64,000 nt of DNA from Candidatus Bathyarchaeota archaeon (GCA_963833575.1 CAWHXY010000006.1:1-64000); one strand, 5' to 3'. Counted from the first letter of the stretch, positions 1,024 to 16,857 are shown. Translations and numbers: made by a program. Notes: generated by a model not told the origin, from the letters alone.

Positions 1024-1449
1024 TTATACTACGAAACTTGTGCTAACGAAGTTGCCACCATGGCTAGTTACTAAGGTTACTGTATAAGTGCCTGCTGTGG
1101 TTAATGGAGCGAAAGTGACCGGTACTAGAGCGCCTGATGCCAATGCTGCACCGCCAGTTGGAGCGGCTGGAGTGCCAACTACTGCGCCAGTGGAATCTTT
1201 AATTATTAAAGAAGTTATGGTAACTGTTCCACTTCCAGTGTTCTGAGCGTAAACTGCACCGTTTGAAACACCTTGTATTGAAACTTTTTCTTGTGCTACA
1301 GTTCCGCCTTGAGTCATTGTTGCTAGTGTTCCGCTTGTAAACATGTAAACTACTACTCCGGCGATAACTGCGATTGCGATGAGAATTAGAGTTGCGAATA
1401 TTGGTGAAATAGCTTTAGTGTTCTTCATAAATTTTCTAAGATTATTCAT
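1024..1449 (-). CDS. archaeal type IV pilin (class III signal peptide)
   Basis: KA/ISPIFATLILIAIAVIAGVVVYMF prepilin cleavage site and hydrophobic helix; Ig-like C-terminus ending LVTSHGG; strong RBS GGAGGTGA (1460-1467) and own TATA-like box. Confidence 0.9.
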   Translation of the reverse strand: MNNLRKFMKNTKAISPIFATLILIAIAVIAGVVVYMFTSGTLATMTQGGTVAQEKVSIQGVSNGAVYAQNTGSGTVTITSLIIKDSTGAVVGTPAAPTGGAALASGALVPVTFAPLTTAGTYTVTLVTSHGGNFVSTSFVV

Positions 1450-2397: not shown

Positions 2398-2838
2398 TTA
2401 TAGCCCCGCGTAATTTGTCCAAATTTGATGGAAAATCTCTAAGGCTTGCGCTCTTGTGTCTTGGGATGCTAATTGTAGGTAAGGATTTGGCTGCGTTCCA
2501 GGATGATTCACAACTGCAGCAAATACCATGCCGCCAAGTTGGCCGCCTGGGAAAGCCAAAACCCGCGCGTTGCGTGGTCTAATTTGATGAGGTCTGGTGC
2601 CGAGAGAAACAAATGAGGCATAAGATGCTGTAGGGATAACTTGAGCACTGTTTCCATCTATTTTTTTGGTTATGCTCATTGCTAAGAAGCCGCTGCGCCA
2701 TGGTGCACGTTTATACGCATTATCTAAGCATGCATCAGCAAGTTTCTCAACGAATTCCGGAACAATTTCTTTGGGCATACTTTGCGCAAGATTCTCTAAA
2801 GTAACATTGATTTTTGTGATTCTGCAGCTGATGCTCAA
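2398..2838 (-). CDS. HK97 gp10-like tail-completion/neck protein
   Basis: APWRSGFLAMSI...YASFVSLGTRPHQIRP...VNHPGTQPNPYL motifs typical of the HK97-gp10-like family; position after head genes. Confidence 0.8.
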   Translation of the reverse strand: MSISCRITKINVTLENLAQSMPKEIVPEFVEKLADACLDNAYKRAPWRSGFLAMSITKKIDGNSAQVIPTASYASFVSLGTRPHQIRPRNARVLAFPGGQLGGMVFAAVVNHPGTQPNPYLQLASQDTRAQALEIFHQIWTNYAGL

Positions 2839-2849
2839 AGAAAATCCCT

Positions 2850-3299
2850 CTATTTTTTAATTTGAAATCGTGTTCCTTTCAAAAGCCAAGCACTACGAAT
2901 CAGGTTAGGCAACTCCGCCTTGACCAATTCATCAGTAATTTCAACTACTGCTTGACCAGAAACTGACAATTGATTAATCTGCACTGTGTCCTGGATCCAT
3001 CTTGCAATGGTTTCCCGCGTTTGAAGAGCCGTCTCAAGAGAATCTCCAGGTTTAACCAAGAGATCTATTATGACAAGTTCATCAACTAACGTAAATTCTC
3101 GAGTTTTAGACGTGCTTTTAGTCGGTTTAGGCGGATTATAGGTGCTAATAATGACATTTTGAGCTATAGCATCTAGTTGGCTAACGGCTTCGAAACGAGT
3201 GTGACTCCAGTTAACATCAGTAACAAGGAAGCCCGTGCCCACACTAGTCCAATTGGTTTGAAGCAAAGTCGAGATTAATTCTGTTAAGGGTAGACTCAT
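2850..3299 (-). CDS. putative head-tail joining / tail terminator protein
   Basis: About 150 aa between the adaptor and gp10-like genes; call from position and size only. Confidence 0.45.
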   Translation of the reverse strand: MSLPLTELISTLLQTNWTSVGTGFLVTDVNWSHTRFEAVSQLDAIAQNVIISTYNPPKPTKSTSKTREFTLVDELVIIDLLVKPGDSLETALQTRETIARWIQDTVQINQLSVSGQAVVEITDELVKAELPNLIRSAWLLKGTRFQIKK

Positions 3300-3309
3300 T
3301 TTGTTTCCC

Positions 3310-3771
3310 CTAAGGTGAGAGCTCTGGGCCACTGTTGTGAGGAATATGGCGGGAAGAATGTGCTAATTTTACCACTGTGGAAACATTCATCAAGTTAGAG
3401 ACAAAACTTTGGGTGTAACTTTGAATCGCGATTTTTATCGAATTCGCATATGGTCCTGCTCTTTGCAGGTGCATGTCTCCAAGGGCATAATCGTAAGCGC
3501 CAATTAGGCTGCCTCCGACAACCGTAACTAATACTCCTAAGCAAGCGAGATCAAGAGCGGCTAACTGTGCGCAGACATAACGCGGATCAGTAGGATCCGA
3601 AAGGGTAGGCACTATTGAATAGAGATATTTATTGGCGTGATCAACCTGCGCCTGAAAAGAATCCGAGGAAATTGTCAAGCCATAAACCGTATAATTGCTA
3701 TTACTGTCTGGACCTGTTGCATTCAGATGGCTAACAAGTTCAGATATCGAAGTAAAGGCAGGTACAGACAT
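3310..3771 (-). CDS. putative head-tail adaptor (SPP1 gp15/HK97 gp6-like)
   Basis: First virus gene after MCP; N-terminal FTSISEL, helical core, YDYALGDMHL hairpin-like segment. Confidence 0.55.
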   Translation of the reverse strand: MSVPAFTSISELVSHLNATGPDSNSNYTVYGLTISSDSFQAQVDHANKYLYSIVPTLSDPTDPRYVCAQLAALDLACLGVLVTVVGGSLIGAYDYALGDMHLQRAGPYANSIKIAIQSYTQSFVSNLMNVSTVVKLAHSSRHIPHNSGPELSP

Positions 3772-3867
3772 TTCAAAGCCTCACAAATTATTTTGAATTA
3801 AAGAAACTGGCAAATTATCTATTTTCTAAGTAAACAGAAAATCTTGAAAACCATTCATATTGAAAGT

Positions 3868-3925
3868 TAGTAAAGAAACCTTGACGCAGGTTAGTCAAGA
3901 AAGTTATACGAATAGGCTTATATCG
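3868..3925 (+). repeat. conserved 58-bp element, copy 1 (inverted half-sites plus BRE/TATA)
   Basis: TAGTAAAGAAACCTTGAC-N7-AGTCAA-N9-ACGAATAGGCTTATATCG; aligns without gaps to 7888-7945. Confidence 0.8.
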
Positions 3926-3946
3926 AAAATCGTTCAAGATCTGGTT

Positions 3947-5290
3947 ATGGTCAGCTGGAGCAAGACTATCTCTTCAATACTTATAGTATTCTTCTTAACT
4001 TCTCAGGTCTTCGTGCTATCCTCTCAAGCTGACCCTGTTTGGAATATCCAGACAATAGACACTGCCAGTGTTGGCGCAGGCGCCCTTGCTTTAGATTCCA
4101 ACGGCAACCCACACTTACTCTACATCCACTATACGAACAACGATGCCTACCATGGCTCCGTTTATCCAGGTCCGTTCGAGTTTATCTATTCGAGCTGGAT
4201 TGGAGGAAGATGGAATAGCGAAGTCATTCCCAATCTTACCAGCGTTTACAACTTCGTGTTAGATTCAAACAATAACCCTCAAATTCTCTATTCTAGCAAT
4301 AAAGGCATAACTATTGACAGTCCGTTAGGGTCAAATTGGACCACGCAACCAACCCCAATCCAATCAGGCGCAAGAAAAGCTTTTCTTGCCTTAGATTTGA
4401 ATGGCAACCCAAGTGTAGTTTACGCAGACAATAGCAGTCCGCTTAATCCAACGCTTTTAGAGTATGCAAACTGGAACGGCGAGAACTGGACTATTCAAAC
4501 CGTTGATTCGGGCAAGATTGGCGGAATAGGTGTAGACAATCTTTATCTAGCATTCGATAAAAACAATTACCCAATCATAATGTATGGTAATGAGACTGAT
4601 TATTCGGCACCAGGTGCAAGTTTACTCTGGGATTTCTCAATCAAGTTTGCGTTCTGGAACGGTACGGATTGGAACCTTCAGACAGTCGTTTCGAATGTAA
4701 CTGCAATGTACAATATGGTTTTAGATTCTAAAGGCTATCCGCACTTCTGTTTCAGACACGATTACCCATATCTCTACAGTGGTAACGACACCTTATTTTA
4801 TGCCAGTAAGGATGGGTCGGGTTGGAATTTTCAAAGTGTTATTTCGAATGAGTCTTTGGGTGATAGTTATCTTGCATTTGATTCTATTGATGTTCCGCAT
4901 ATAACATATTTCAACGATTCTGGTTTGATTTATACGGTTTGGAATGGAACTGATTGGGCACCTCAAGTCGTTAGTCCAACTAATCAAACAGTACAGGGCA
5001 GTCCAATACCAAATGGTGGAGGTCAAATAATAATTGACTCGCACGAAAACGCCGACATCGCCTTTGGCGCATTTCCTTCTGGCTACCCTGAGTCTTTTGT
5101 CTATTTTAGTATGTTTGCAACTGCTACAGAGCCTTCCTTTATGCCTACGCCGACTCCTTCAGTCACTTCAAACACTTTGGCAGTATCGAAATCAATTCTC
5201 ATTATCTTATTCGTGACAGGATCTGTTGCAATCGGTGTTTTAGTGTTGCTTTATAGACGACATCGAAAAACCAAAAACTTAGAACATTAA
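3947..5290 (+). CDS. secreted beta-propeller-like protein with C-terminal membrane anchor (antisense moron)
   Basis: Signal peptide after ATG 3947; repeated LALDxNGNPHxxY...W blades; P/T linker, TM helix and RRHRK tail. Confidence 0.8.
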   Translation: MVSWSKTISSILIVFFLTSQVFVLSSQADPVWNIQTIDTASVGAGALALDSNGNPHLLYIHYTNNDAYHGSVYPGPFEFIYSSWIGGRWNSEVIPNLTSVYNFVLDSNNNPQILYSSNKGITIDSPLGSNWTTQPTPIQSGARKAFLALDLNGNPSVVYADNSSPLNPTLLEYANWNGENWTIQTVDSGKIGGIGVDNLYLAFDKNNYPIIMYGNETDYSAPGASLLWDFSIKFAFWNGTDWNLQTVVSNVTAMYNMVLDSKGYPHFCFRHDYPYLYSGNDTLFYASKDGSGWNFQSVISNESLGDSYLAFDSIDVPHITYFNDSGLIYTVWNGTDWAPQVVSPTNQTVQGSPIPNGGGQIIIDSHENADIAFGAFPSGYPESFVYFSMFATATEPSFMPTPTPSVTSNTLAVSKSILIILFVTGSVAIGVLVLLYRRHRKTKNLEH

Positions 5291-5355
5291 GACCTTCTTA
5301 TTGCTCGCTTCTCCAAACTGTAACGCTATAGCGAGCCAGCGTTTTGAATTTGGCC

Positions 5356-5375
5356 AGAAAAAGAAAAAAAGAAAT
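5356..5375 (-). terminator. oligo-T terminator after major capsid gene
   Basis: A-rich run AAAAAGAAAAAAAGAAA on plus strand (T-tract on minus) directly after the MCP stop. Confidence 0.5.
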
Positions 5376-5379
5376 TAGT

Positions 5380-6276
5380 TTAGCTTGTTAAGCAACCTGT
5401 GATCTTGGCGACACATTCACCGTTGGTGACTATGGGTGCATACCGTGTTGTTAGCAGTGGCTTGACGATTTCTTTGCTCTTAATTAAGTCTACATCAGTT
5501 GTTAGAGGTCTTCTAACTAAGAAGTAGCCAAGAGGTGCGTATGCTGCTGAGAGGTTTTTGCCTGTGCTTATACAGTAGACTGTTCCTGCGGGAATTACAT
5601 TGGACCAACAGAGTTCCCATTCGCCTAGCATCTGCATTGGTTGCTGAGTAATTGGGCTAGTAACTTCACGTAGCAAGCTGTAGTTTGGCAGGTTCTTTAT
5701 GTCACGTTTCTGAACAGGGTTGCAAAGGATCGTGTCCATCTGGAAGTCTGCTTTGTTGATTAGAGCCTCTGCATTGTTGAAGTCTTCCATACCTGGAGTC
5801 TGAGCCTTTGTGAACTCGGTTCCTGCGACAGTAATTGTTTTGCCTGTGCAAGCGTTGGAGTTGGCTACTGGGCATGCTGCATCTATTACGCCTATGCAGT
5901 CAGTTTCAATTTGGAAGGCTAAACGTCTTGCGAGTCTTTTGAGTTGCTGATTGACAACTGGTAGATCCACGTCTTCAACGATTTCTTTGGGAATTTCGAC
6001 TCCTTCGCCTCGTTTGTATGGGCTAACAACTGCGTAGCTTAATGGTGTGTAATCTACTGGTACTGCTGAGCCTGGAGCTATTTCGCTTATGCCAACGCTG
6101 CGGGATCCAGCTTCTTTTACGTAGGTTTTGGTTCTGCCGTGTTTAAGCACATCATCGACCAATAGCCGTTTTACAACGAGATTGGGCATGGTGAGTTCGA
6201 GCAATTGTTGATGTAGTTCGGGATACTGAATAGCGCCTGTATCTACCCATGTTAGGGCATCTTCATTAAACGACAT
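5380..6276 (-). CDS. major capsid protein (HK97 fold)
   Basis: 298 aa after protease and cement genes; EIAPGSAVP (E-loop), YKRGEGVEIPKEIVED, spine helix LARRLAFQIETD, ILCNP motif. Confidence 0.85.
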   Translation of the reverse strand: MSFNEDALTWVDTGAIQYPELHQQLLELTMPNLVVKRLLVDDVLKHGRTKTYVKEAGSRSVGISEIAPGSAVPVDYTPLSYAVVSPYKRGEGVEIPKEIVEDVDLPVVNQQLKRLARRLAFQIETDCIGVIDAACPVANSNACTGKTITVAGTEFTKAQTPGMEDFNNAEALINKADFQMDTILCNPVQKRDIKNLPNYSLLREVTSPITQQPMQMLGEWELCWSNVIPAGTVYCISTGKNLSAAYAPLGYFLVRRPLTTDVDLIKSKEIVKPLLTTRYAPIVTNGECVAKITGCLTS

Positions 6277-6292
6277 TCTTCATTATTCTCCT

Positions 6293-6772
6293 TTAACCAA
6301 ATATTATTACGACTGTTGCGTTGTTGGCTCCACCGATGATGACAACGCCTCTTCTGTTCATTTGTGCGTTAATTATGGCTGCAAGTCCTGTGCAAGTGGT
6401 TGTAAATGGCGAGGCAGCACCCGTGATCGCTATGGTGCCAGCGACTGCTGCATCGGTTGTTGGTGCAAGTTTTGTGATTCCGCCATTTCCTGAGGTTACG
6501 ACATCGCCTGCGCTCAAAGCCCCGCCTGAAGTGTTTTTCACTCGCAAACGATGACCAAAAGTGTAGACATTAAGTGCTTTATTGCCGCCAACTGCTATGC
6601 TTTGGACAAAGCCGATGAACGCTGGATTTGGTGCGGTGCATAGTGAAACTTTGTTATCTGCGGAAATGTAAACTGGGTCTCCGACGGCGGGTGCTGTGTA
6701 GCCTGAATCTGGGAAGAATGTTTGCTCTAGATCTGGAATTACTTTTATGCTTGAACTATCAAAATATGTCAT
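6293..6772 (-). CDS. capsid cement/decoration protein
   Basis: Small G/A/T-rich beta protein (AVGDPVYISADNKV, GALSAGDVVTSG) immediately upstream of MCP. Confidence 0.65.
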   Translation of the reverse strand: MTYFDSSSIKVIPDLEQTFFPDSGYTAPAVGDPVYISADNKVSLCTAPNPAFIGFVQSIAVGGNKALNVYTFGHRLRVKNTSGGALSAGDVVTSGNGGITKLAPTTDAAVAGTIAITGAASPFTTTCTGLAAIINAQMNRRGVVIIGGANNATVVIIFG

Positions 6773-6774
6773 TT

Positions 6775-7866
6775 TTAGGACTCCTCTTCCTCTTCGTGGG
6801 TTATGTCAGCAGTTAAGCCCGCCATCCTGTGGGCAGCTGCTTTGAGTTCTAAACCTGCTTTTTGCAGGTTGGCTTTCCTGGCGAACATGTTGTTGAGTTT
6901 TTGTGCATCATCCGGTGCTGCTATGATGCCTTTGCCTGTGGGTTTTGCGGCGATTTTTGGAAGCATCGCTGAGACAGCTGCTTTGACTTCAGTTGTCAAT
7001 TTTGCTTCAAGCTTTGTTGAGCTTTCAGCTATGGCTGCTTTGCAAGCGTTCATTATTGTGGCAGTGTTTTTTGTGAGTTCATCTTGGAATTGCTGATATG
7101 TCAGTTCTGTGCCGGCTTTGACTGCTGCCTTTTTGGCTTTTTCTTCTTCAGTTTCTTCAATGGGGGGTTCTTGTTTAGGTGGTTTTTCTGACAATTGATT
7201 TTTTTCTCCTGTTACTTTTTGTTGGTTAGGCTCGTCTTTTTTAGCGAGCTGTACCTGTGATCTAAGCTGAGAAATTCCGCAAGGACACTTGGTTTTGTCT
7301 TGGCAACTGCATTTAGAAGCAATCAAGGCTCTTTGTTGGGCTTCATTCATGGCGGCTGCGAAACCCTTAGGCCTAAAAATATTGTTTTTATATGCTCCAA
7401 CTGCTACGATGCTTAATTCGACACATTGCGGCTTATGGACAACTTCATATGCGCCGGAGCAAAGGTGAATCATGCCTAAAGTTTCGTTTCGGGTTTTGTC
7501 GCCGCATTTGCTGCAGACAATTTCGTCTGAGATAACTTTGGGGCTAACCATGTTGAGATATTTCTTCTCAATCTGAGTTAGTAAAATGGGATCTCCGGAG
7601 ACCTCGGCAGAAAAAAGAACTGTATCGCCGACTCGCTTAACGGTTTTAACAATCCCTTTGACGTCTTCCACATTTGTGCCATGGTTAATTCGTAACTGCG
7701 AATTTTTCAGAGTAGAAGCAAAATAGTCAATATCTTCAGAGGGCACTTGCCAATTATTTTCGTTAATAGACGTGTCGATTGCTTGACCTTCAATCGTTAT
7801 CGTTTGCCTAATTTCATCTATGCTAGCTTTAACATCTATGTCATAATTTAGTTTCGTTAAAACCAC
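6775..7866 (-). CDS. prohead maturation protease fused to scaffold-like domain
   Basis: IEGQAIDTSINENNW, LRINHG (His), VSP (Ser), ELSIVAVGAY; charged helical C-terminal half. Confidence 0.75.
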   Translation of the reverse strand: MVLTKLNYDIDVKASIDEIRQTITIEGQAIDTSINENNWQVPSEDIDYFASTLKNSQLRINHGTNVEDVKGIVKTVKRVGDTVLFSAEVSGDPILLTQIEKKYLNMVSPKVISDEIVCSKCGDKTRNETLGMIHLCSGAYEVVHKPQCVELSIVAVGAYKNNIFRPKGFAAAMNEAQQRALIASKCSCQDKTKCPCGISQLRSQVQLAKKDEPNQQKVTGEKNQLSEKPPKQEPPIEETEEEKAKKAAVKAGTELTYQQFQDELTKNTATIMNACKAAIAESSTKLEAKLTTEVKAAVSAMLPKIAAKPTGKGIIAAPDDAQKLNNMFARKANLQKAGLELKAAAHRMAGLTADITHEEEEES

Positions 7867-7887
7867 CCATTAAGCGTCTCTTGTTAA

Positions 7888-7945
7888 TAGTCAAGAAACT
7901 TTGACTAACCTCAGTCAACTTTCTGTGACGAATAGCCTTTTATCG
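7888..7945 (+). repeat. conserved 58-bp element, copy 2
   Basis: TAGTCAAGAAACTTTGAC-N7-AGTCAA-N9-ACGAATAGCCTTTTATCG; 41/58 identical to copy 1 by manual ungapped alignment. Confidence 0.8.
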
Positions 7946-7968
7946 CCTACAGTTTCCTAATACTAAGT

Positions 7969-8823
7969 ATGGGTAAAATCGGCAAAACTTTCGCTCTCTT
8001 TCTAACTCTAATTATCGCTATGTCATGCCTAACTGTGCTTATAATCAAACCTACCAATGCTCAGAGTATACCAACCCTTTCTACTCCACAATTTACTATC
8101 AAGTTTGTAAATGCCTCCTATACTTCAACAACCACAAATTCCTATACTGGTCAAAGTCAAACTCAACTTATCAATAATAACTCAATTGAAATAACGATTA
8201 AGAACCAACCTTTCGATTACTCAAACAACGGTTTACCTTATCAAATATACTTTAATGTACGTGTCGAACCGCATTTCTCAAACAAAGATAACTGGACAGA
8301 AGTTTATCCGTTAGAAAACTTGACAAGTTCACAGGCTAGCGGAAACGGTTTTCCTTATGCATGGTATTTGCTTCCTGAGTCGCCCCCACAATCAAATCAG
8401 GACTATACTACAATTGCATTCCCTGTTATTCCAACTGAGGTTTATGGGGCTTCTGGCTATGATGTTTTGAGAGCAGACACAGGGCATAATGCTTGGTTAC
8501 CTGATTTTCTTGATGCTATTCCAAGCGGTGCTCAACTTGATTTCCAAGTACAGGCATTAGTTGGACATAATTCTACGTACTGGTATATTCAACATCCCTT
8601 TACGCCTACTTATGGTGGATATTCTGCTCCTGCTACTGCATATGATTCAGCAAGTGGATGGAGTAACTCACAAACAATAACAATAGGAGAAACAACTTCT
8701 AATTCACCAAGTCCATCTCCAACTGTTCCAGAGTTATCTTGGTCAGCAATTTTGCCAATGTTCTTTGCCTTGGTCTCTGTTGCTTTAATGCTTAGGCGTC
8801 GAAATAAGGCTAGTTACCAGTAA
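7969..8823 (+). CDS. secreted protein with PEF-like C-terminal sorting signal (antisense moron)
   Basis: Signal peptide; S/P/T linker; VPELSW + TM + RRRNK tail resembling archaeosortase-type PEF-CTERM. Confidence 0.8.
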   Translation: MGKIGKTFALFLTLIIAMSCLTVLIIKPTNAQSIPTLSTPQFTIKFVNASYTSTTTNSYTGQSQTQLINNNSIEITIKNQPFDYSNNGLPYQIYFNVRVEPHFSNKDNWTEVYPLENLTSSQASGNGFPYAWYLLPESPPQSNQDYTTIAFPVIPTEVYGASGYDVLRADTGHNAWLPDFLDAIPSGAQLDFQVQALVGHNSTYWYIQHPFTPTYGGYSAPATAYDSASGWSNSQTITIGETTSNSPSPSPTVPELSWSAILPMFFALVSVALMLRRRNKASYQ

Positions 8824-9206
8824 ACGTCATGTTCTCTCACGACCAGGCAGTGACAGTTGGGATGCAAATTCACCGCAAAAGTGTCATCATCAAGCCATTC
8901 GCCCCAGGGAAACATATCTAAGAGCTCATCAGGGTCTTTCAGCTCGTAAGTGTCGGTTTTGTTGTCATCGCAGTTGTGGCAAAGATTAGGGCTAGGCGCT
9001 AACCCCTCAGTTACATATCGCCAAACGGTATATCGAATTGCAGGGTTAACAACAGCGGCTTTTAAGCCAACTCCAGCTAAAACAGGCGTATTAAGAAGTC
9101 CAGCAACTTCAATTGCCTCAAATAGAACCGCTTCAGGAAGAGGAAGCGATAATTTCTGCGACAAGATAATTCTTTCCATCCTTGTTGAAAGTTGCTTGAT
9201 TCCCAA
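8814..9206 (-). CDS. phage minor head protein (Mu gpF/SPP1 gp7-like C-terminal domain)
   Basis: CHNC...LHPNCHC motif immediately after portal. Confidence 0.7.
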   Translation of the reverse strand: MGIKQLSTRMERIILSQKLSLPLPEAVLFEAIEVAGLLNTPVLAGVGLKAAVVNPAIRYTVWRYVTEGLAPSPNLCHNCDDNKTDTYELKDPDELLDMFPWGEWLDDDTFAVNLHPNCHCLVVREHDVYW

Positions 9207-10542
9207 ACTTGTTTCCTGACTGATTTAATTGCGGCTTAGGTGCAGGTAGAGGATTTGAGTCTTGAGGCATCTCTTTTGGCAAGCCAACAGCAACTCGCCA
9301 TTCACTAATTCTGGCTGCATTTGCTTGAACAAGAGTCGCATAAATTGCTGACTTCTCCTGTAAACTTGGCTCCCAAATCGGCTTCCACTTAATATGCGGA
9401 ACCTCAGTGCCCTCCCCAAATTTGGCTTCAACAAGCCGAGTAAAATGCATCGTCTCGACATCGTCGCCCATGATTTCTTGAAGCATTCGCAGTCGGGTAA
9501 CGAATTCCTGCATTACTATATCGGCTGTTGCACGATTTGTCCCGGATGGCTCGCCTAAGAAGATTTCAGGCACGCCCAAAATGGCTTTTCTTTGGCGCTC
9601 TAAGTAATTCATCCAGGGCTCAAAATTCAGAGTGCGCGTTAAGGATTGAACTTGGTCAACTGTGACGTCTCCTCGGACAAAAACATCTGTATTGGGTCTG
9701 CGATCGCTAAAAGCTTCCATTAGGGTACCAAGTTGCGTATCGTTGAAGGGGCGCTCCGGAGTGCCTGCTTTCACGACAAGCATTGGCTTAAGGTAAACGC
9801 CGACTATAGTTGCCATGTCCCGCTCATAAGAGTCAATGTAGGCTTGATTTAGAATTAATGGCCTAATTTCGCTTGTTCCGTAAATTGCTTCATACCAGTT
9901 ACTTTTCGGCTCATTTTTAAAATGCATAATTTCCTGAGCAGTAAAAGGCACAGGCGGAAAAGTCAACAGTTGAATATAGCCAAAAACGTTGCCATATTCA
10001 TCTCGGCGAACGCGCATGTGAACTGGATCCAGCCCTTTAAGCCACCACAGTTCAGGAGGCACACTTTCGTCACTGCAGAGTTCTTGGTAGGCATTGCCAT
10101 AAACCATCATATCCCAAGCAACTACGCGGAGGGTTTGCAGAAAATTATGTTTATCGCACCAATCCATCAGCCAAGTGCGAACATCTTCATCGCCGCCTTC
10201 AAGTTCAAACCCGTTGCTGATGGCCATGTTAGCTTTAACCCGAATAGAAGCAGCCACATAGGGGACTCTTGTTGCTAAATCCTTGTATTTTGCCAAATCT
10301 TCAACTGGGGTAACTCCCCAAACTAGATCCCAAATTGCCGTATAAGGCTGAGAAACAAAGCCGGCTCCACTTGCTGGCTGCTTATATTTACTGTTAATAT
10401 AGCTGTAGAGTTCGCCATCGGTTCGCCAGCTGAAGGGAATTTGCTCCTGCATTTGCTGAGTACTAACATCAAGTGAAACGTTCCGATCTGTGCCGGAAAC
10501 GGTGATACTAATACTACTGCGAGCAGGCATAAGAAAAATCAC
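9133..10542 (-). CDS. portal protein
   Basis: YGNAYQEL, LDPVHMRVRRDEYG, EIMHFK...IYGTSEI, ILGVPEIFLG...NRATA portal motifs. Confidence 0.9.
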   Translation of the reverse strand: MIFLMPARSSISITVSGTDRNVSLDVSTQQMQEQIPFSWRTDGELYSYINSKYKQPASGAGFVSQPYTAIWDLVWGVTPVEDLAKYKDLATRVPYVAASIRVKANMAISNGFELEGGDEDVRTWLMDWCDKHNFLQTLRVVAWDMMVYGNAYQELCSDESVPPELWWLKGLDPVHMRVRRDEYGNVFGYIQLLTFPPVPFTAQEIMHFKNEPKSNWYEAIYGTSEIRPLILNQAYIDSYERDMATIVGVYLKPMLVVKAGTPERPFNDTQLGTLMEAFSDRRPNTDVFVRGDVTVDQVQSLTRTLNFEPWMNYLERQRKAILGVPEIFLGEPSGTNRATADIVMQEFVTRLRMLQEIMGDDVETMHFTRLVEAKFGEGTEVPHIKWKPIWEPSLQEKSAIYATLVQANAARISEWRVAVGLPKEMPQDSNPLPAPKPQLNQSGNKFGNQATFNKDGKNYLVAEIIASSS

Positions 10543-10546
10543 TCAC

Positions 10547-10762
10547 TTATGGTTTAGGCGCGTTTGAAACAGGCTTTTTAACTGTAATGAGTAGCGTATC
10601 CAAGACGTAATGTTCCAGGATATCTTTGCCATTAACGTAAATATGCAGGTCCGAAGGCTTCGCTGTTATTTCTACGCCTAAAGCTTGCACTATCTTTTTA
10701 GCAGGATCAGTCGGTCTATCATCTGCGCTGAAGAGTTCTTTTTCGTTTTCAGGAACATCCAT
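10547..10762 (-). CDS. hypothetical proviral protein
   Basis: 71-aa ORF between TerL and portal. Confidence 0.55.
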   Translation of the reverse strand: MDVPENEKELFSADDRPTDPAKKIVQALGVEITAKPSDLHIYVNGKDILEHYVLDTLLITVKKPVSNAPKP

Positions 10763-10782
10763 AATTAATCACTGTGAATTTT

Positions 10783-10896
10783 TCATTTTTTGTACCAGGA
10801 ATTGTGAGAATTCAAAAACTCTTGAGAACATAGAATGGCTTTGCAATCTGCAGCAGTTAGTACTTCAACAGTTTTGCCTTCACGAATAATTTTCAT
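10783..10896 (-). CDS. small hypothetical protein (37 aa)
   Basis: MKIIREGKTVEVLTAADCKAILCSQEFLNSHNSWYKK starts 6 bp after the reconstructed TerL stop. Confidence 0.35.
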   Translation of the reverse strand: MKIIREGKTVEVLTAADCKAILCSQEFLNSHNSWYKK

Positions 10897-10901
10897 AAAT
10901 T

Positions 10902-12259
10902 TTAATGTCTTATGAAGCCCGCACACTTCCCGGGCGGAGCACTTGAATTCAAAATGTTAATGGCGCCGCTGCAGGCGTCAATTTGATCGTCATGTTCACC
11001 TTCAGGGAATGCTTCAGCTTCATCAAGAAACTCGCTGATCCAATCTCCCCGCACCAAAAAGACTTGCCATTTTCAGCCGCCGTACTGAAGGGTCCTGCTC
11101 TTACTTCTTTGCTTCCGGTCGGGCGCTCACTTCGAAACATAAAGCCTTGCAGGATTTCTCGGGCATAGTAATCAGCTGCAATTTTGCCGCTTGAGCCGCC
11201 TTCCTCTTCCATCCAAACCTCTTGATCTCGACCATCAAGCTGAGCAACAGTTTTGATCTTGTCTGCAGTGCCCTTGGGGGTCTTCTGGAAATGCTCCAGA
11301 CCAAAAATATAATATTGCCCTTGACAGACGCCGATTAAAGCGCCAGCCGTCCAGTCAGGATCTTTGCCCTTCGCCGGTTCGGAGCTTGCCAAATCCCAAT
11401 AACGAACCTTAAAGATATCTGTCGGCGCTTGGGCTTTTTCAATTATTGTGAACCAGGAGCGGTTGAACATTTTGCCGACTGCTGCATCCCAGCTGCCCTC
11501 AAGCAGCTGCTTGCGTGTAGTTGAATCTAGGGCTTGAAGCCGTTTAATATAACTTGCTTGGTCAATGTGCGGGTTATCCTGCAACCTCGCAGGCACAAAA
11601 ACTCTTCCATATTTTTCACCTTCCACAATAAACCGCTGCTTAACCCAAGCATGCCCCAGGCCGCCCGGGTTAGATGCTCCCCACAACCGCAAAGGCACTG
11701 GAAAATTGTCTGGCCGACGCAACCGACTGTTCAAGTAAACATATTGGGTCTCGCTAAACTGGGTTAGTTCATCTGGGAATATGCCTATGAATTCTGCGCC
11801 TTGATAACGATATTTGTCGGTTTCTGACTCAAGGTAGCCAAATTGTACTTTGGCGCCGCTTGGAAAGGTCCAACAGTGCTGAATCTCGTTCCAACGTGCG
11901 TCAGTGTCTTGTAGCCATTCTTTGCTTCGATCCATCAGTGCACCGGGAAGCGCTAAATCCCGATAAGTGCGCCTTAAAATCAAAGCTGTATAATGTGAAA
12001 ACTCTACATATTGCAAAGCCGCCATTAAGAGTGCTGAACTTTTACCTGGTCCTGCTGCCCCGCCAAATAACGCTTCAGTAGCACCGCAGGTCAGAAATTC
12101 AATTTGTTTTGGCGTTGGCTTCTGAATAATGTAGGGATTGTTAAGGATTGTTCTCTGGAATATTTTCCGTTGAAGTTCCTCTTCGCGATTGGATGATTGC
12201 GTCGTATTCGGCAAGGATTTCGAATGTTTCTTTGATGTCAGTTGTGGGGTTGGTAACAT
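10902..12259 (-). pseudogene. terL: terminase large subunit, frameshifted near the C-terminus (~11056-11065)
   Basis: Walker A GGAAGPGKS, Walker B IFPDELTQF, ASNPGG coupling motif, RYWDLA nuclease motif; conserved tail VFLVRGDWISEFLDEAEAFPEGEHDDQIDA lies in the -1 frame. Confidence 0.85.
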
Positions 12260-15492: not shown

Positions 15493-16857
15493 TTATCCAT
15501 AAGCTGCAAGCTGTAGGTCGGATGCTACGAACACTTTATTATCAGATATAATCGGTGGCAAAACATAGTGGTCAAAATGTTGATTTCTTGCAAAGTTTCC
15601 TGTTGACGCATCGAAAACCCATAAAGCATTATTCTCATTTAAAAACACTGAATCTCTGTTGACAACTAAACCAGCAGAAAATCCGTAAAATACGCCGCTG
15701 TCTTCTATTTGTCTATCCCACATAAGTTTTCCAGTGGCCAAATCAAGGCTGCATAATGTTGCTAAATAATGATCATGCTTATTCTCGCTCGTTGTTCCAA
15801 GTTGCTGAATAACGCCAAAACTCCAGTAGATTCTATTGTTTTGAGGATCAACTTGTATTGGATAAGTAACAAGAGTGTTGCTATCGTTAACCATTGGAAA
15901 AATGCTTTGATTATCAACTTTCGTTTTGGATACTACTGTACTGCTACGTAAGTCGAGCGCATAAAAGTTGCCATCTGATGCTCCAAAGTAAAGAACCCAT
16001 TTATACAGAGTTGGCTGGTAAATTGACGACCCAATATCAATGCTCCAAAGACTAACACCAGAAGTATCATTGAAACTTTGTATTTGGTTACCGTTCTCTA
16101 TTACAACTTGCCCTTGATAGGTTGCTAAGACACTTGGAATTCCGCTAAATATGCTGACATTAGCATGCCAAAAAATGCTGCCATTATCCGTATTTAGTTT
16201 AAAAATATTTGGGCTTGACTCATTGCCACCTAAGGCATATAATACGTTACCATTAAACGCGTCGCCTACCAATGGAAAACCACTTGCCCACCAAGTATTC
16301 GAATCGGTTATGTTACCAAAACTATCATAACCGTAATAGTAAGATGCTTGCCAAAGAAACTGTCCAGTGGTTGCATTATGAGAAGTAACATCTGGGCTTA
16401 CTCCTTCCGTAAGTGTTAATACTTGGCCGTCATTAACGATTATGTTATCTGGAGCTAATGCATGGTCTACGTCGCTTATGAAGCTCCATTGAAACAGTCC
16501 GTTAGACTCATTTAAGCAGCCGACTGAAGCATCCCTATACCCACCGTAAACTCTTCCATCTGATATTGTGATGTCAGCAGCGAAATAACCGCCTACACTG
16601 TTACCGTTCCAGATGGAATTGCCGTTCTTGCCATCGTAGCTGTTAACGTTTCCTGAAATATCCATTGTAAACACTTGTCCGTTATCAGTAGCCAATCCAG
16701 TAGCAAAGTTTTGGATGGAGCGTTGCCAAAGAATCCCCGAGCCGTCGGGATTTTTGACATAATTTGCATAAATTAATAATGAAGAAACAGTTATGACTGC
16801 GATTAAGCCTATGGCTATTACCGACAAGGTACGCTTAGTCATCTTTCGCCCCCTCAT
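15493..16857 (-). CDS. PQQ-like beta-propeller repeat protein, N-terminal membrane anchor
   Basis: Repeated LYFGASDGNFYALD / G..LW Trp-docking motifs; hydrophobic N-terminus. Confidence 0.85.
   Translation of the reverse strand: MRGRKMTKRTLSVIAIGLIAVITVSSLLIYANYVKNPDGSGILWQRSIQNFATGLATDNGQVFTMDISGNVNSYDGKNGNSIWNGNSVGGYFAADITISDGRVYGGYRDASVGCLNESNGLFQWSFISDVDHALAPDNIIVNDGQVLTLTEGVSPDVTSHNATTGQFLWQASYYYGYDSFGNITDSNTWWASGFPLVGDAFNGNVLYALGGNESSPNIFKLNTDNGSIFWHANVSIFSGIPSVLATYQGQVVIENGNQIQSFNDTSGVSLWSIDIGSSIYQPTLYKWVLYFGASDGNFYALDLRSSTVVSKTKVDNQSIFPMVNDSNTLVTYPIQVDPQNNRIYWSFGVIQQLGTTSENKHDHYLATLCSLDLATGKLMWDRQIEDSGVFYGFSAGLVVNRDSVFLNENNALWVFDASTGNFARNQHFDHYVLPPIISDNKVFVASDLQLAAYG

Follow-up and report, generated by a model that had tools for sequence, protein, structure and literature searches.

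The 58-bp element that occurs twice in a tailed provirus of Candidatus Bathyarchaeota archaeon (GCA_963833575.1 CAWHXY010000006.1:1-64000; these 64,000 nt, analysed as a whole, are the window) is very probably a cis-regulatory module, in which two tandem sites for a dimeric regulator stand just 5' of an archaeal BRE/TATA promoter. It is most likely the operator-plus-promoter of a surface-protein regulon and not a recombination site. This reading builds on the anatomy of the element, its copy number, its position relative to ORFs, its conservation across species and the boundaries of the insertions that carry it. In one Bathyarchaeota genus, the module would head a regulon whose members are secreted surface proteins anchored in the membrane, and two cargo genes (morons) of the provirus entered it by insertion, each with its own copy (Table 1).

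Table 1 Features of the window discussed in the text (positions counted from its first nucleotide).
Feature	Position	Strand	Remarks
Copy 1 of the 58-bp module	3868..3925	+	PWM 69.5 bits
Copy 1, distal unit	3869-3886
Copy 1, linker	3887-3892
Copy 1, proximal unit	3893-3910
Copy 1, TATA-like box	3917-3924
Copy 2 of the 58-bp module	7888..7945	+	PWM 73.7 bits
Copy 2, distal unit	7889-7906
Copy 2, proximal unit	7913-7930		degenerate
Copy 2, TATA-like box	7937-7944
Inserted segment 1	3786..5300	.	takes the place of ~30 intergenic bp that separate head-tail connector and capsid genes
Cargo gene 1, 447 aa	3947..5290	+	signal-peptide-like N-terminus, repeat-rich body, C-terminal membrane anchor ..YRRHRKT..
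Inserted segment 2	7868..8811	.	between protease/scaffold gene start and end of small head gene
Cargo gene 2, 284 aa	7969..8823	+	signal peptide, Ser/Thr/Pro linker, ..VPELSW.. hydrophobic anchor, basic tail
Viral backbone between copies	5380..7866	-	conserved in 20 related provirus loci
Major capsid protein	5380-6276	-	Phage_capsid_4 just below cut-off
Decoration-like protein	6293-6772	-
Protease/scaffold	6775-7866	-
Viral backbone upstream	8814..12259	-	small head protein to large terminase
Portal	9133-10542	-	Portal_Mu above cut-off
Large terminase	10949-12259	-	Terminase_6N and Terminase_6C above cut-off

Both copies lie on the plus strand, antisense to the provirus head module (terminase, portal, protease/scaffold, capsid, and connector), and the ungapped alignment of the preliminary description was reproduced, with 41 of 58 positions identical and 17 different. 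The element consists of two tandem 24-bp units with the consensus AGTCAAGAAAnyTTGAC, followed by a TATA-like box. The site within each unit is a near-palindrome of 16-18 bp, GTCAAG-N4-yTTGAC, whose spacer contains an invariant GAAA. The unit starts are 24 bp apart, 6-7 bp separate the end of the proximal unit from the TATA-like box CTTTTATC, and the centre of this box lies ~27.5 nt upstream of the ATG. The ATG itself lies 21 nt past copy 1 (3947) and 23 nt past copy 2 (7969). The TTGAC/GTCAA "arms", which had been taken as a single site, are the facing halves of two neighbouring units.

Relative to a seed consensus composed by eye, copy 1 differs at 12 of 58 positions and copy 2 at 7; each viral copy is nearer to this consensus than to the other copy, which suggests two separate acquisitions. 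Copy 1 is odd in its linker, which is atypical, and in its distal unit, whose last base is G rather than T. The proximal unit of copy 2 is degenerate, and its promoter may therefore be regulated differently or weakly. The bulged hairpin reported for copy 2 does fold (-8.2 kcal/mol, z -3.5); in its extended form it is peculiar to this copy, and a sister provirus has 10 more bases there in the proximal unit. Across 61 unique copies, positions G3, T4, A7, A9, A10, T14, G27, T28, A30, and A31 are invariant and positions 12-13, 22-23, and 36-37 are variable (22-23 below 0.2 bits), although conservation at the searched positions is partly by construction because the copies were collected by pattern and PWM. 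C50-TTTTA55, which lay outside the search pattern, is kept in 52-58 of the 61 copies.

The similarity of the copies is far beyond chance, with 15 matches at up to 17 mismatches in the genome of origin. The PWM scan of this genome likewise returned 15 matches of 58-88 bits, and at least 15 promoters on five contigs carry the element. The distal and proximal units alone gave 19 and 27 matches, respectively, against none in the reversed genome, whereas the TATA part alone was unspecific (71 matches against 86). A linker-blind pattern with a free 8-nt linker matched 80 of 120 genus genomes and its reversed control none; a stricter pattern matched 12 of 25 genus genomes and none of 16 genomes of the other genera in the order. 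Related (pro)viruses carry the module on other cargo genes (loci L041, L049, and L050, weakly L058, and as a variant L042), and one IMG/VR contig has two tandem units on the cargo gene of a related (pro)virus.

An ATG-initiated ORF of at least 40 aa begins within 130 nt downstream of 54 of the 61 copies, most frequently at an offset of 22-23 nt (25 of 54). Hydrophobic, signal-peptide-like N-termini are found in 42 of these 54 ORFs and hydrophobic C-terminal anchors in 31 of the 47 that are complete. The downstream families are unrelated and include PQQ/beta-propeller, NosD-like beta-helix, BsuPI-like, and Kelch proteins, a multi-pass membrane protein, and unannotated families. When the viral inserts are compared with the chromosomal copies, nucleotide similarity covers the element with the leader and signal-peptide region (77-84%) and a short piece of the 3' anchor, and the gene bodies cannot be aligned. 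A TATA-like box stands at a set distance from the gene start, palindromic sites lie in fixed phase directly 5' of the BRE, and the same site is common to several unlinked, unrelated genes and conserved across species, as in a regulated archaeal promoter. Genome-wide, TATA-like hexamers show a weak peak near -41 from the ATG and not at -27.5. This leaves two readings, namely that these genes differ from most in being leaderless, or that the TTTAC of the proximal unit is the real TATA box.

In the accessible sections of two reports on archaeal activators, a dimer site lies a few bp 5' of the BRE and further sites lie two or three helical turns away (PMC2995911, PMC5512572). The element resembles the sites of Ptr2, LysM, Ss-LrpB, and EarA (fla promoter) and the ara-box described there, in that short palindromic or consensus sites are repeated just 5' of the BRE/TATA (PMC2995911, PMC5512572). 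As far as those sections go, it shares with them a proximal site a few bp from the BRE, a second about two helical turns upstream, and one motif at several unlinked promoters, and it differs from them in its own motif, its unit (6-bp arms, a 4-bp spacer, invariant GAAA), and its targets, the surface proteins of a genus of uncultured Bathyarchaeota. In contrast to these known sites, activation is suggested here by position only. A putative dimeric DNA-binding regulator would bind the two tandem units upstream of the BRE/TATA, and from that position we consider activation somewhat more probable than repression. At the usual archaeal TATA-to-start distance, transcription would begin at or next to the start codon and yield a leaderless or near-leaderless mRNA.

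The boundaries of both insertions could be placed by comparison with relatives. Homology to cargo-free sister proviruses ends at 3783-3785 and restarts at 5301-5302 around segment 1; homology to a cargo-free relative ends at 7867 and restarts at 8812 around segment 2. The stop of cargo gene 2 and the three codons before it belong to viral backbone sequence. L042 and L044, with capsid proteins 98-99% identical, have an empty site 1, and L045 and L047 an empty site 2. Independent metagenome DNA contigs join 3783 to 5302 and 7853 to 8814, the cargo-free forms of the two sites. Each gene is therefore missing at the same junction of close relatives while the flanks are conserved, and the two head-module hot spots accept many different cargoes in either orientation.

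Cargo gene 1 has a BNR_4 match that is weak and below the cut-off, and its product shares 39% identity with the N-terminal half of a chromosomal protein of 884 aa whose gene has the same promoter. The family of cargo gene 2 was found in Bathyarchaeota only and matched neither Pfam nor NCBIfam; the same promoter also precedes its paralogs on the chromosome, at C4:505158 and C7:629550. The two downstream genes had been called unrelated, which holds for their bodies (best blastp E 0.067) but not for the C-terminal anchor common to both. The tails of the ..VPEF/VPEL.. type, hydrophobic and then basic, only resemble the PEF-CTERM sorting signal; the curated C-terminal model for this signal gave no NCBIfam match at E up to 0.1 in 12 regulon proteins, including both window genes.

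Phage morons are independently transcribed cargo genes that lambdoid and HK97-like phages carry amid their conserved genes, and their products, made from the prophage, are often envelope or surface proteins. The two cargo genes resemble them in having a predicted promoter of their own between adjacent structural genes and in being missing in close relatives; they differ in their archaeal host and in a promoter that is recognisably that of a host regulon instead of a generic one. In the Bathyarchaeia virus papers searched, neither morons nor promoters are mentioned. Since each cargo gene has its own copy of the module, it could be transcribed on its own, in antisense to the viral late operon and without depending on it, presumably in the lysogen, and could thus come under the host's control of the surface-protein regulon. 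RNA contigs of one metatranscriptome cover relatives' viral structural genes and not the cargo genes, which carries no weight either way.

Three other explanations were weighed. The one that survives best, though improbable, is a constitutive strong promoter-plus-leader block without a dedicated regulator, spread between genes for surface proteins by duplication and gene conversion, its conservation reflecting recent common descent. Similarity often extends across the 5' leader and into a signal peptide (MGxIxKxFAL.. type) that the genes have in common, and since many members have a similar signal peptide, part of the conservation may indeed come from common descent of such a block. Promoter and gene body re-assort, because only 5 of 24 loci with cargo gene 1 homologs have a copy of at least 40 bits, with one weak match of 17.6 bits in addition. 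However, the element also stands 5' of genes with unrelated signal peptides and of some non-secreted proteins, the coding regions have diverged past nucleotide alignment, and the unit is present twice at a fixed 24-bp phase. Conservation is moreover position-specific: in the 61 copies, taken from 40-odd genomes, the half-sites are invariant, whereas positions in the spacer and the linker are free to vary.

Less probable still is a dual-use boundary, in which the palindromes with their T-runs also stop transcription arriving from the upstream gene or the opposite strand and so insulate the cargo from the viral late operon. A terminator scan flags the hairpin of copy 1 with its T-rich tail (minus strand, 3900-3879), but the scan uses a bacterial-type consensus and found 9 sites against 5.3 expected in shuffles. 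The element folds with modest stability (-5 to -8 kcal/mol), yet z-scores are weak in two of the four copies folded and the pairing register varies between copies. In arrays it stands right behind the stop codon of the preceding gene or overlaps that codon; in the provirus, a terminator there would cut the late transcript between capsid and connector genes.

Least probable of all is the reading first proposed, that of a tyrosine-recombinase-type site with inverted arms and an asymmetric 8-bp core flipped between the copies, which mobilises single surface-protein genes as cassettes. Tyrosine-recombinase sites have two inverted arms around one asymmetric 6-8 bp crossover core of defined orientation. 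Like such core sites and integron attC, the element has short inverted repeats (TTGAC/GTCAA) about 8 bp apart in both copies and recurs between array genes. Unlike them, its repeats belong to two units and its spacer is variable and symmetric. The core of one copy, reverse-complemented, does match the other at 6 of 8 positions, but the linker consensus TAAryTyA is nearly self-complementary, and among the 61 copies the forward orientation fits better in 43 and the reverse in 16 (by 0.4 to 4.6 bits), with 2 ties. The linker of copy 1 fits poorly either way (-3.4 and -2.2 bits). The proposed core is thus a variable, quasi-palindromic linker from which no flip can be deduced. LVKKP*/IVKKL* can be read in frame at the left end, as proposed for the 3' end of a preceding cassette gene, but these reading frames extend over no more than 6 and 23 codons.

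Many copies do punctuate tandem arrays of unrelated secreted-protein genes, as had been predicted, and in these arrays the gene before a copy ends within it; a regulon promoter predicts the punctuation equally. The element-bearing genes are accessory and are inserted in viruses as well as in the chromosome. The expectation that breakpoints would map inside the motif failed against cargo-free relatives: the left breakpoints lie outside it, by 82 bp at site 1, 20 bp at site 2, and ~75 bp at the chromosomal C4:505 kb insert, and the right breakpoints of the three insertions fall at or within the 3' end of the gene. The 3' junctions and empty sites lack any copy or half-site of the element, so that no partner site marks the other cassette end, and at least seven inserts at the same viral hot spots are without the element. 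Nor does a tyrosine recombinase accompany it. Pfam searches of 35 window ORFs found no recombinase, PF00589 (Phage_integrase) has no match in window positions 1-64000, the nearest being ~125 kb away, and none of its five matches in the genome stands beside the arrays at C7:625-632 kb, C8:157-164 kb, C4:327 kb, and C4:505 kb. The two copies are direct repeats, and recombination between them would therefore delete the capsid and protease genes. Contigs of four sequencing runs, which drop rare forms, contain no strand-changing joint and only the cargo-free joints 3783>5302 and 7853>8814; a single 3883>7934 joint, with 33 non-matching letters in between and a side of 33 letters, probably represents another family member from a different locus. 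Contradicted by the linker, the breakpoints and the recombinase search, the recombination-site reading is largely refuted, and the evidence favours the alternative already offered in the preliminary description, a common activator operator joined to a BRE/TATA promoter. Its corollary that the genes are vertically inherited does not hold, because these accessory genes travel with their promoter.

For the operator-plus-promoter reading, winged-helix proteins of the same genomes were considered as regulators. The best candidate, the DUF7347/ArsR-like family, whose members have a membrane anchor, was rejected as the general regulator because its distribution does not track the motif: the family occurs in 45 of 120 genomes, and the motif in 32 of these 45 and in 48 of the 75 without it. 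The motif lies within 1.5 kb of 4 of 30 DUF7347 loci and 2 of 30 control loci, and the distant wHTH loci examined showed no link to it. DUF7347 genes have an upstream palindrome of their own, GTCC[AT]G-N4-C[AT]GGAC, which shares the 6-bp arms and 4-bp A-rich spacer of the unit of the 58-bp element and differs at one arm position. At C7:13198, a hybrid promoter carries a DUF7347-type palindrome at the position of the distal unit.

The window covers the opening 64 kb of a contig from a 2.75-Mb genome. A tailed-provirus head module occupies its minus strand from base 1 to about 20,000, genes of ordinary cellular type begin at about 21 kb, and relatives of the capsid protein were found in Candidatus Bathyarchaeota MAGs. 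Two cargo genes are inserted in the module in the opposite orientation, each behind a copy of a 58-bp element. Both cargo proteins have a signal-peptide-like N-terminal segment and a membrane anchor at the C-terminal end. As described previously, the two copies align without gaps (41 of 58 positions identical); the ATGs lie 21 and 23 nt past the element end in copies 1 and 2, respectively, and the downstream proteins are unrelated except for the anchor. Based on sequence comparisons, the element is a real and widespread putative operator-plus-promoter module of a surface-protein regulon, carried here by provirus cargo genes. RNA contigs from a single run cover the relatives' genes for capsid, protease, and portal but leave the cargo genes uncovered.

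Provirus genes, element features, and winged-helix regulator genes.
Feature	Position	Strand	Remark
Large terminase	10949-12259	-	Provirus head module
Portal	9133-10542	-	Provirus head module
Small head protein	8814-9206	-	Provirus head module
Protease/scaffold	6775-7866	-	Provirus head module
Decoration-like protein	6293-6772	-	Provirus head module
Major capsid protein	5380-6276	-	Provirus head module
Head-tail connectors	3310-3771, 2850-3332, 2398-2838	-	Provirus head module
Cargo genes	3947-5290, 7969-8823	+	Opposite to module; element copy ahead of each
Element copies 1 and 2	3868-3925, 7888-7945	+	
TATA-like box, CTTTTATC	Centre about 27.5 nt before ATG		
Winged-helix regulator, host genome	C8:162363-163217; C7:12149-13111		Three paralogs in host genome; C7 and C8 are contigs
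Winged-helix regulator, sister proviruses	L043:4620-5453; L052:7533-8368		Antisense cargo at site 1 (capsid-connector hot spot)

Across 61 unique copies, the consensus reads tAGTCAAGAAAcyTTGACtaa..tyAGTCAAGaaA.yTTtACGAa.A..CCTTTTAtc. It contains two units whose starts are 24 bp apart, and in each of them GTCAAG and yTTGAC are separated by a 4-bp spacer whose A-run is invariant. The proximal unit is frequently degraded to TTTAC, and the TATA-like box follows 6-7 bp past it. Conservation among the 61 copies is position-specific, with the half-sites kept and the spacers not. A fuzzy search of the host genome with a seed consensus composed by eye found 15 copies, and the position weight matrix scan suggested in the preliminary description also gave 15 sites, at 58-88 bits. 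A pattern with a free 8-nt linker had at least 302 matches, spread over 80 of the 120 genomes of the genus, and its reversed form had none. A stricter pattern was present in 12 of 25 genomes of the genus versus 0 of 16 genomes of other genera in the order. The occurrence of the element is far from chance. Its specificity comes from the operator units, because these have 19 and 27 matches in the host genome versus 0 in the reversed genome, and not from the TATA part, which is non-specific by itself (71 matches versus 86). An Rfam search of positions 3000-9500 with E-values up to 1 gave no matches.

An ATG-initiated ORF of at least 40 aa begins within 130 nt of 54 of the 61 copies, at an offset of 22-23 nt in 25 cases. 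Hydrophobic N-terminal segments are present in 42 of these 54 ORFs and hydrophobic C-terminal segments in 31 of the 47 complete ones. The encoded families include PQQ-type propellers, NosD-like beta-helix, BsuPI-like, and Kelch proteins, a multi-pass membrane protein, and unannotated families restricted to Bathyarchaeota; no PEF-CTERM members were detected among 12 element-headed proteins, both cargo proteins included, with NCBIfam models at E-values up to 0.1. Some of these genes lack a signal peptide. One of them encodes a small Cys/His-rich protein (about 57-68 aa) with the conserved stretches ..ALNHYVINHRLL..FCAICHQPIVEGQRVASRK.., and the element precedes it in several relatives (loci L007, L009, L012, L064, L075, and L085). 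This small protein was ruled out as an autoregulated factor because tblastn showed it to be absent from the host genome.

When viral inserts and chromosomal copies are compared at the nucleotide level, similarity is confined to three parts: the element itself, the region of leader and signal peptide, and a short piece of the anchor. The gene bodies have diverged past alignment. The viral copies differ from the by-eye seed consensus at 12 (copy 1) and 7 (copy 2) positions and from each other at 17. Only 5 of 24 loci with homologs of cargo gene 1 have a copy of at least 40 bits (one more has a weak 17.6-bit match), and promoter and gene body therefore re-assort. The confined similarity, the copy-to-consensus distances, the re-assortment, and the position-specific conservation together favor a regulon promoter over mere shared ancestry. 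The distance from TATA box to transcription start that is usual in archaea is well established, and with the box centre located as in the table, it predicts leaderless or near-leaderless mRNAs for the element genes. PMC5512572 also gives this distance. In a crude count, TATA-like hexamers upstream of 877 long ORFs of the host genome showed a weak peak near -41 from the ATG; unlike the element genes, most genes of this genome may have leaders of about 14 nt. According to two papers (PMC2995911 and PMC5512572), archaeal activators bind as dimers at a site a few bp upstream of the BRE and again at a distance of about two helical turns from it. The element matches the layout described there, with its proximal site a few bp from the BRE and the second about two helical turns upstream. 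This likeness favors activation over repression, and we consider activation the somewhat more probable mode of the predicted regulation. A description of the motif, or of morons in Bathyarchaeia viruses, was not found in a limited literature search, and within its limits the operator-plus-promoter module is previously undescribed.

The preliminary description had proposed, as one of two readings, a recombination site of the tyrosine-recombinase type, for which breakpoints inside the motif would be support. We compared 20 related provirus loci. Site 1, between connector and capsid genes, is empty in proviruses L042 and L044 (capsid identity 98-99%), and their homology with the window ends at 3783-3785 and restarts at 5301-5302. 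Site 2 is empty in L045, where homology ends at 7867 and restarts at 8812. Both empty forms also occur, independently, in metagenome DNA contigs (joints 3783>5302 and 7853>8814). These limits define the inserts as 3786-5300 and 7868-8811, and the breakpoints are not inside the motif, which begins 82 and 20 bp inward of the left junctions. The right junctions lie 10 bp past the stop codon of cargo gene 1 and within the last codons of cargo gene 2, and no element copy or half-site was found at either right junction or either empty site. A chromosomal copy at 505 kb of contig C4 lies within an insertion of ~1.5 kb, whose breakpoint is separated from the element by about 75 bp; the two flanking genes are adjacent in the 5 relatives with both flanks aligned. 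Vertical inheritance was rejected for this chromosomal copy, which adjoins the F420-ligase gene, since the loci of only 2 of 30 genomes have the motif within 1.5 kb of the conserved neighbour; the copy is therefore an insertion too. Five tandem 11-bp units containing TTGACA mark the far edge of this insertion (L090:3830-3880, about 503.8 kb of C4), which carries a motif-gene unit.

Many different cargoes have been inserted at both viral junctions, which are thus hot spots. The element is present in the cargoes of L041, L049, L050, and, weakly, L058, and at least seven others are without it (L043, L045, L046, L052, L057, L059, and L060). On one IMG/VR contig, two tandem units in sense orientation adjoin the connector genes. 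No co-occurring tyrosine recombinase was found: a PF00589 search gave 0 matches in the window, and the five matches of the host genome are located elsewhere. As the two copies have the same orientation (direct repeats), a recombination event between them would remove the genes for capsid and protease. A joint at 3883>7934 (run X4) was rejected as a product of such recombination, with 33 unlike letters between, a short side, and 88% likeness, and is read as another family member at a different locus. Breakpoints, junctions, recombinase, and repeat orientation thus all speak against the proposal, none of its testable features being observed. The element is most likely not a recombination site; it rides inside mobile segments as their predicted promoter. 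At window 7864-7872, the start of the protease/scaffold gene was replaced by the second insertion; the gene now begins with GTG and encodes a longer N-terminus than in the cargo-free relative. The last three codons and stop of cargo gene 2 (window 8812-8823) are antisense of the 3' end of the small head gene.

The arms of TTGAC-N8-GTCAA, previously taken as one inverted-repeat site, are the right half of the first unit and the left half of the second; they are halves of neighbouring units, and the 8-nt "core" is consequently a linker. Its outer bases are part of the half-sites, and its inner positions 22-23 carry less than 0.2 bits, the lowest conservation in the element. The linker consensus TAAryTyA is nearly identical to its own reverse complement, which explains why the reverse complement of the copy 1 linker resembles the copy 2 linker. 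When compared with the family, 43 linkers fit better forward, 16 better reversed (margins of 0.4 to 4.6 bits), and 2 tie, and copy 1 fits poorly both ways (-3.4 and -2.2 bits). With the linker left free, the 61 copies give no support to a flipped core, and copy 1 fits neither orientation. The long hairpin of copy 2 is a local change, as L042 has 10 more bases there, the start of a proper proximal unit. The LVKKP*/IVKKL* reading at the left end of the element is correct as a reading, but its interpretation as the 3' end of a preceding gene is not supported, the frames staying open for no more than 6 and 23 codons. Upstream genes of chromosomal arrays do terminate within the element (..SVKKV*, ..SQETLT*), because it holds TGA and TAA in two frames.

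A membrane-anchored winged-helix protein, with a DUF7347/ArsR-like N-terminus, one transmembrane helix, and an outside domain, is encoded next to copies of the motif at C8:162 kb and at C7:12 kb. Its genes have their own perfect palindrome, GTCC[AT]G-N4-C[AT]GGAC, about 95 bp upstream, present at 19 of 30 regulator loci (L125-L154) versus 0 of 30 control loci and 0 of 46 motif loci. The host genome has three sites (C8:162273, C7:13198, and C7:10160) and the reversed genome none. This palindrome probably serves autoregulation. GTCCAG-N4-CTGGAC has the same architecture as the element unit GTCAAG-N4-CTTGAC, with one arm position changed, and at C7:13198 it takes the place of the distal unit in a hybrid promoter; both features are suggestive of a related factor. 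The DUF7347/ArsR-like protein itself was rejected as the cognate factor. Its family is present in 45 of 120 genomes, the motif occurs in 32 of these 45 versus 48 of the 75 without the family, and co-location is weak (motif at 4 of 30 loci versus 2 of 30 controls). A search for distant wHTH homologs in five motif-rich genomes without this family gave no full-length match of at least 25 bits except a weak one of 33.6 bits (L197), and these homologs were rejected because neither a unit nor a GTCAAG-type palindrome lies beside them. A 61-bit element copy on the minus strand at C8:163240-163297 has no ORF downstream and is directed, in antisense, into the 3' end of the gene for the regulator, perhaps as a relic or as an antisense promoter.

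Bathyarchaeota are abundant and uncultured, and to our knowledge, almost nothing is known about their transcription control. The sharply defined motif marks a predicted surface-protein regulon and provides a concrete probe towards its regulator. In archaeal tailed proviruses, cargo genes recur at two hot spots of the head module, some apparently under a host-regulon promoter, which is the archaeal counterpart of the morons of bacterial lysogenic conversion. A tempting but wrong reading, a new cassette-recombination system, is also removed. It is a bold and rather improbable extension that the element is the plug of a portable operator, promoter, leader, and signal-peptide module, traded between Bathyarchaeota chromosomes and tailed viruses and fused to varied surface-protein bodies, by which viruses would wire cargo into the host surface-remodelling regulon. 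Since sister proviruses carry the winged-helix regulator at the same hot spot, with an operator of the same architecture, a virus could, if this is true, also reprogramme the surface regulon, e.g., for superinfection exclusion.

In the sister provirus L042, several structural genes and the homolog of cargo gene 2 align piecewise in different frames, which suggests sequencing indels in the assembly or decay and makes 1-bp differences from L042 unreliable. A 141-aa provirus protein (window 1024-1449, minus strand) without a Pfam match has an N-terminus (..AISPIFATLILIAIAVIAGVVVYMF..) that resembles pilin-type signals of archaea. The provirus also encodes a PQQ-type beta-propeller protein (window 15493-16857, minus strand), with no element copy ahead of its gene. 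It is similar to the C-terminal half of an 884-aa chromosomal protein, and cargo gene 1 to the N-terminal half of that protein.
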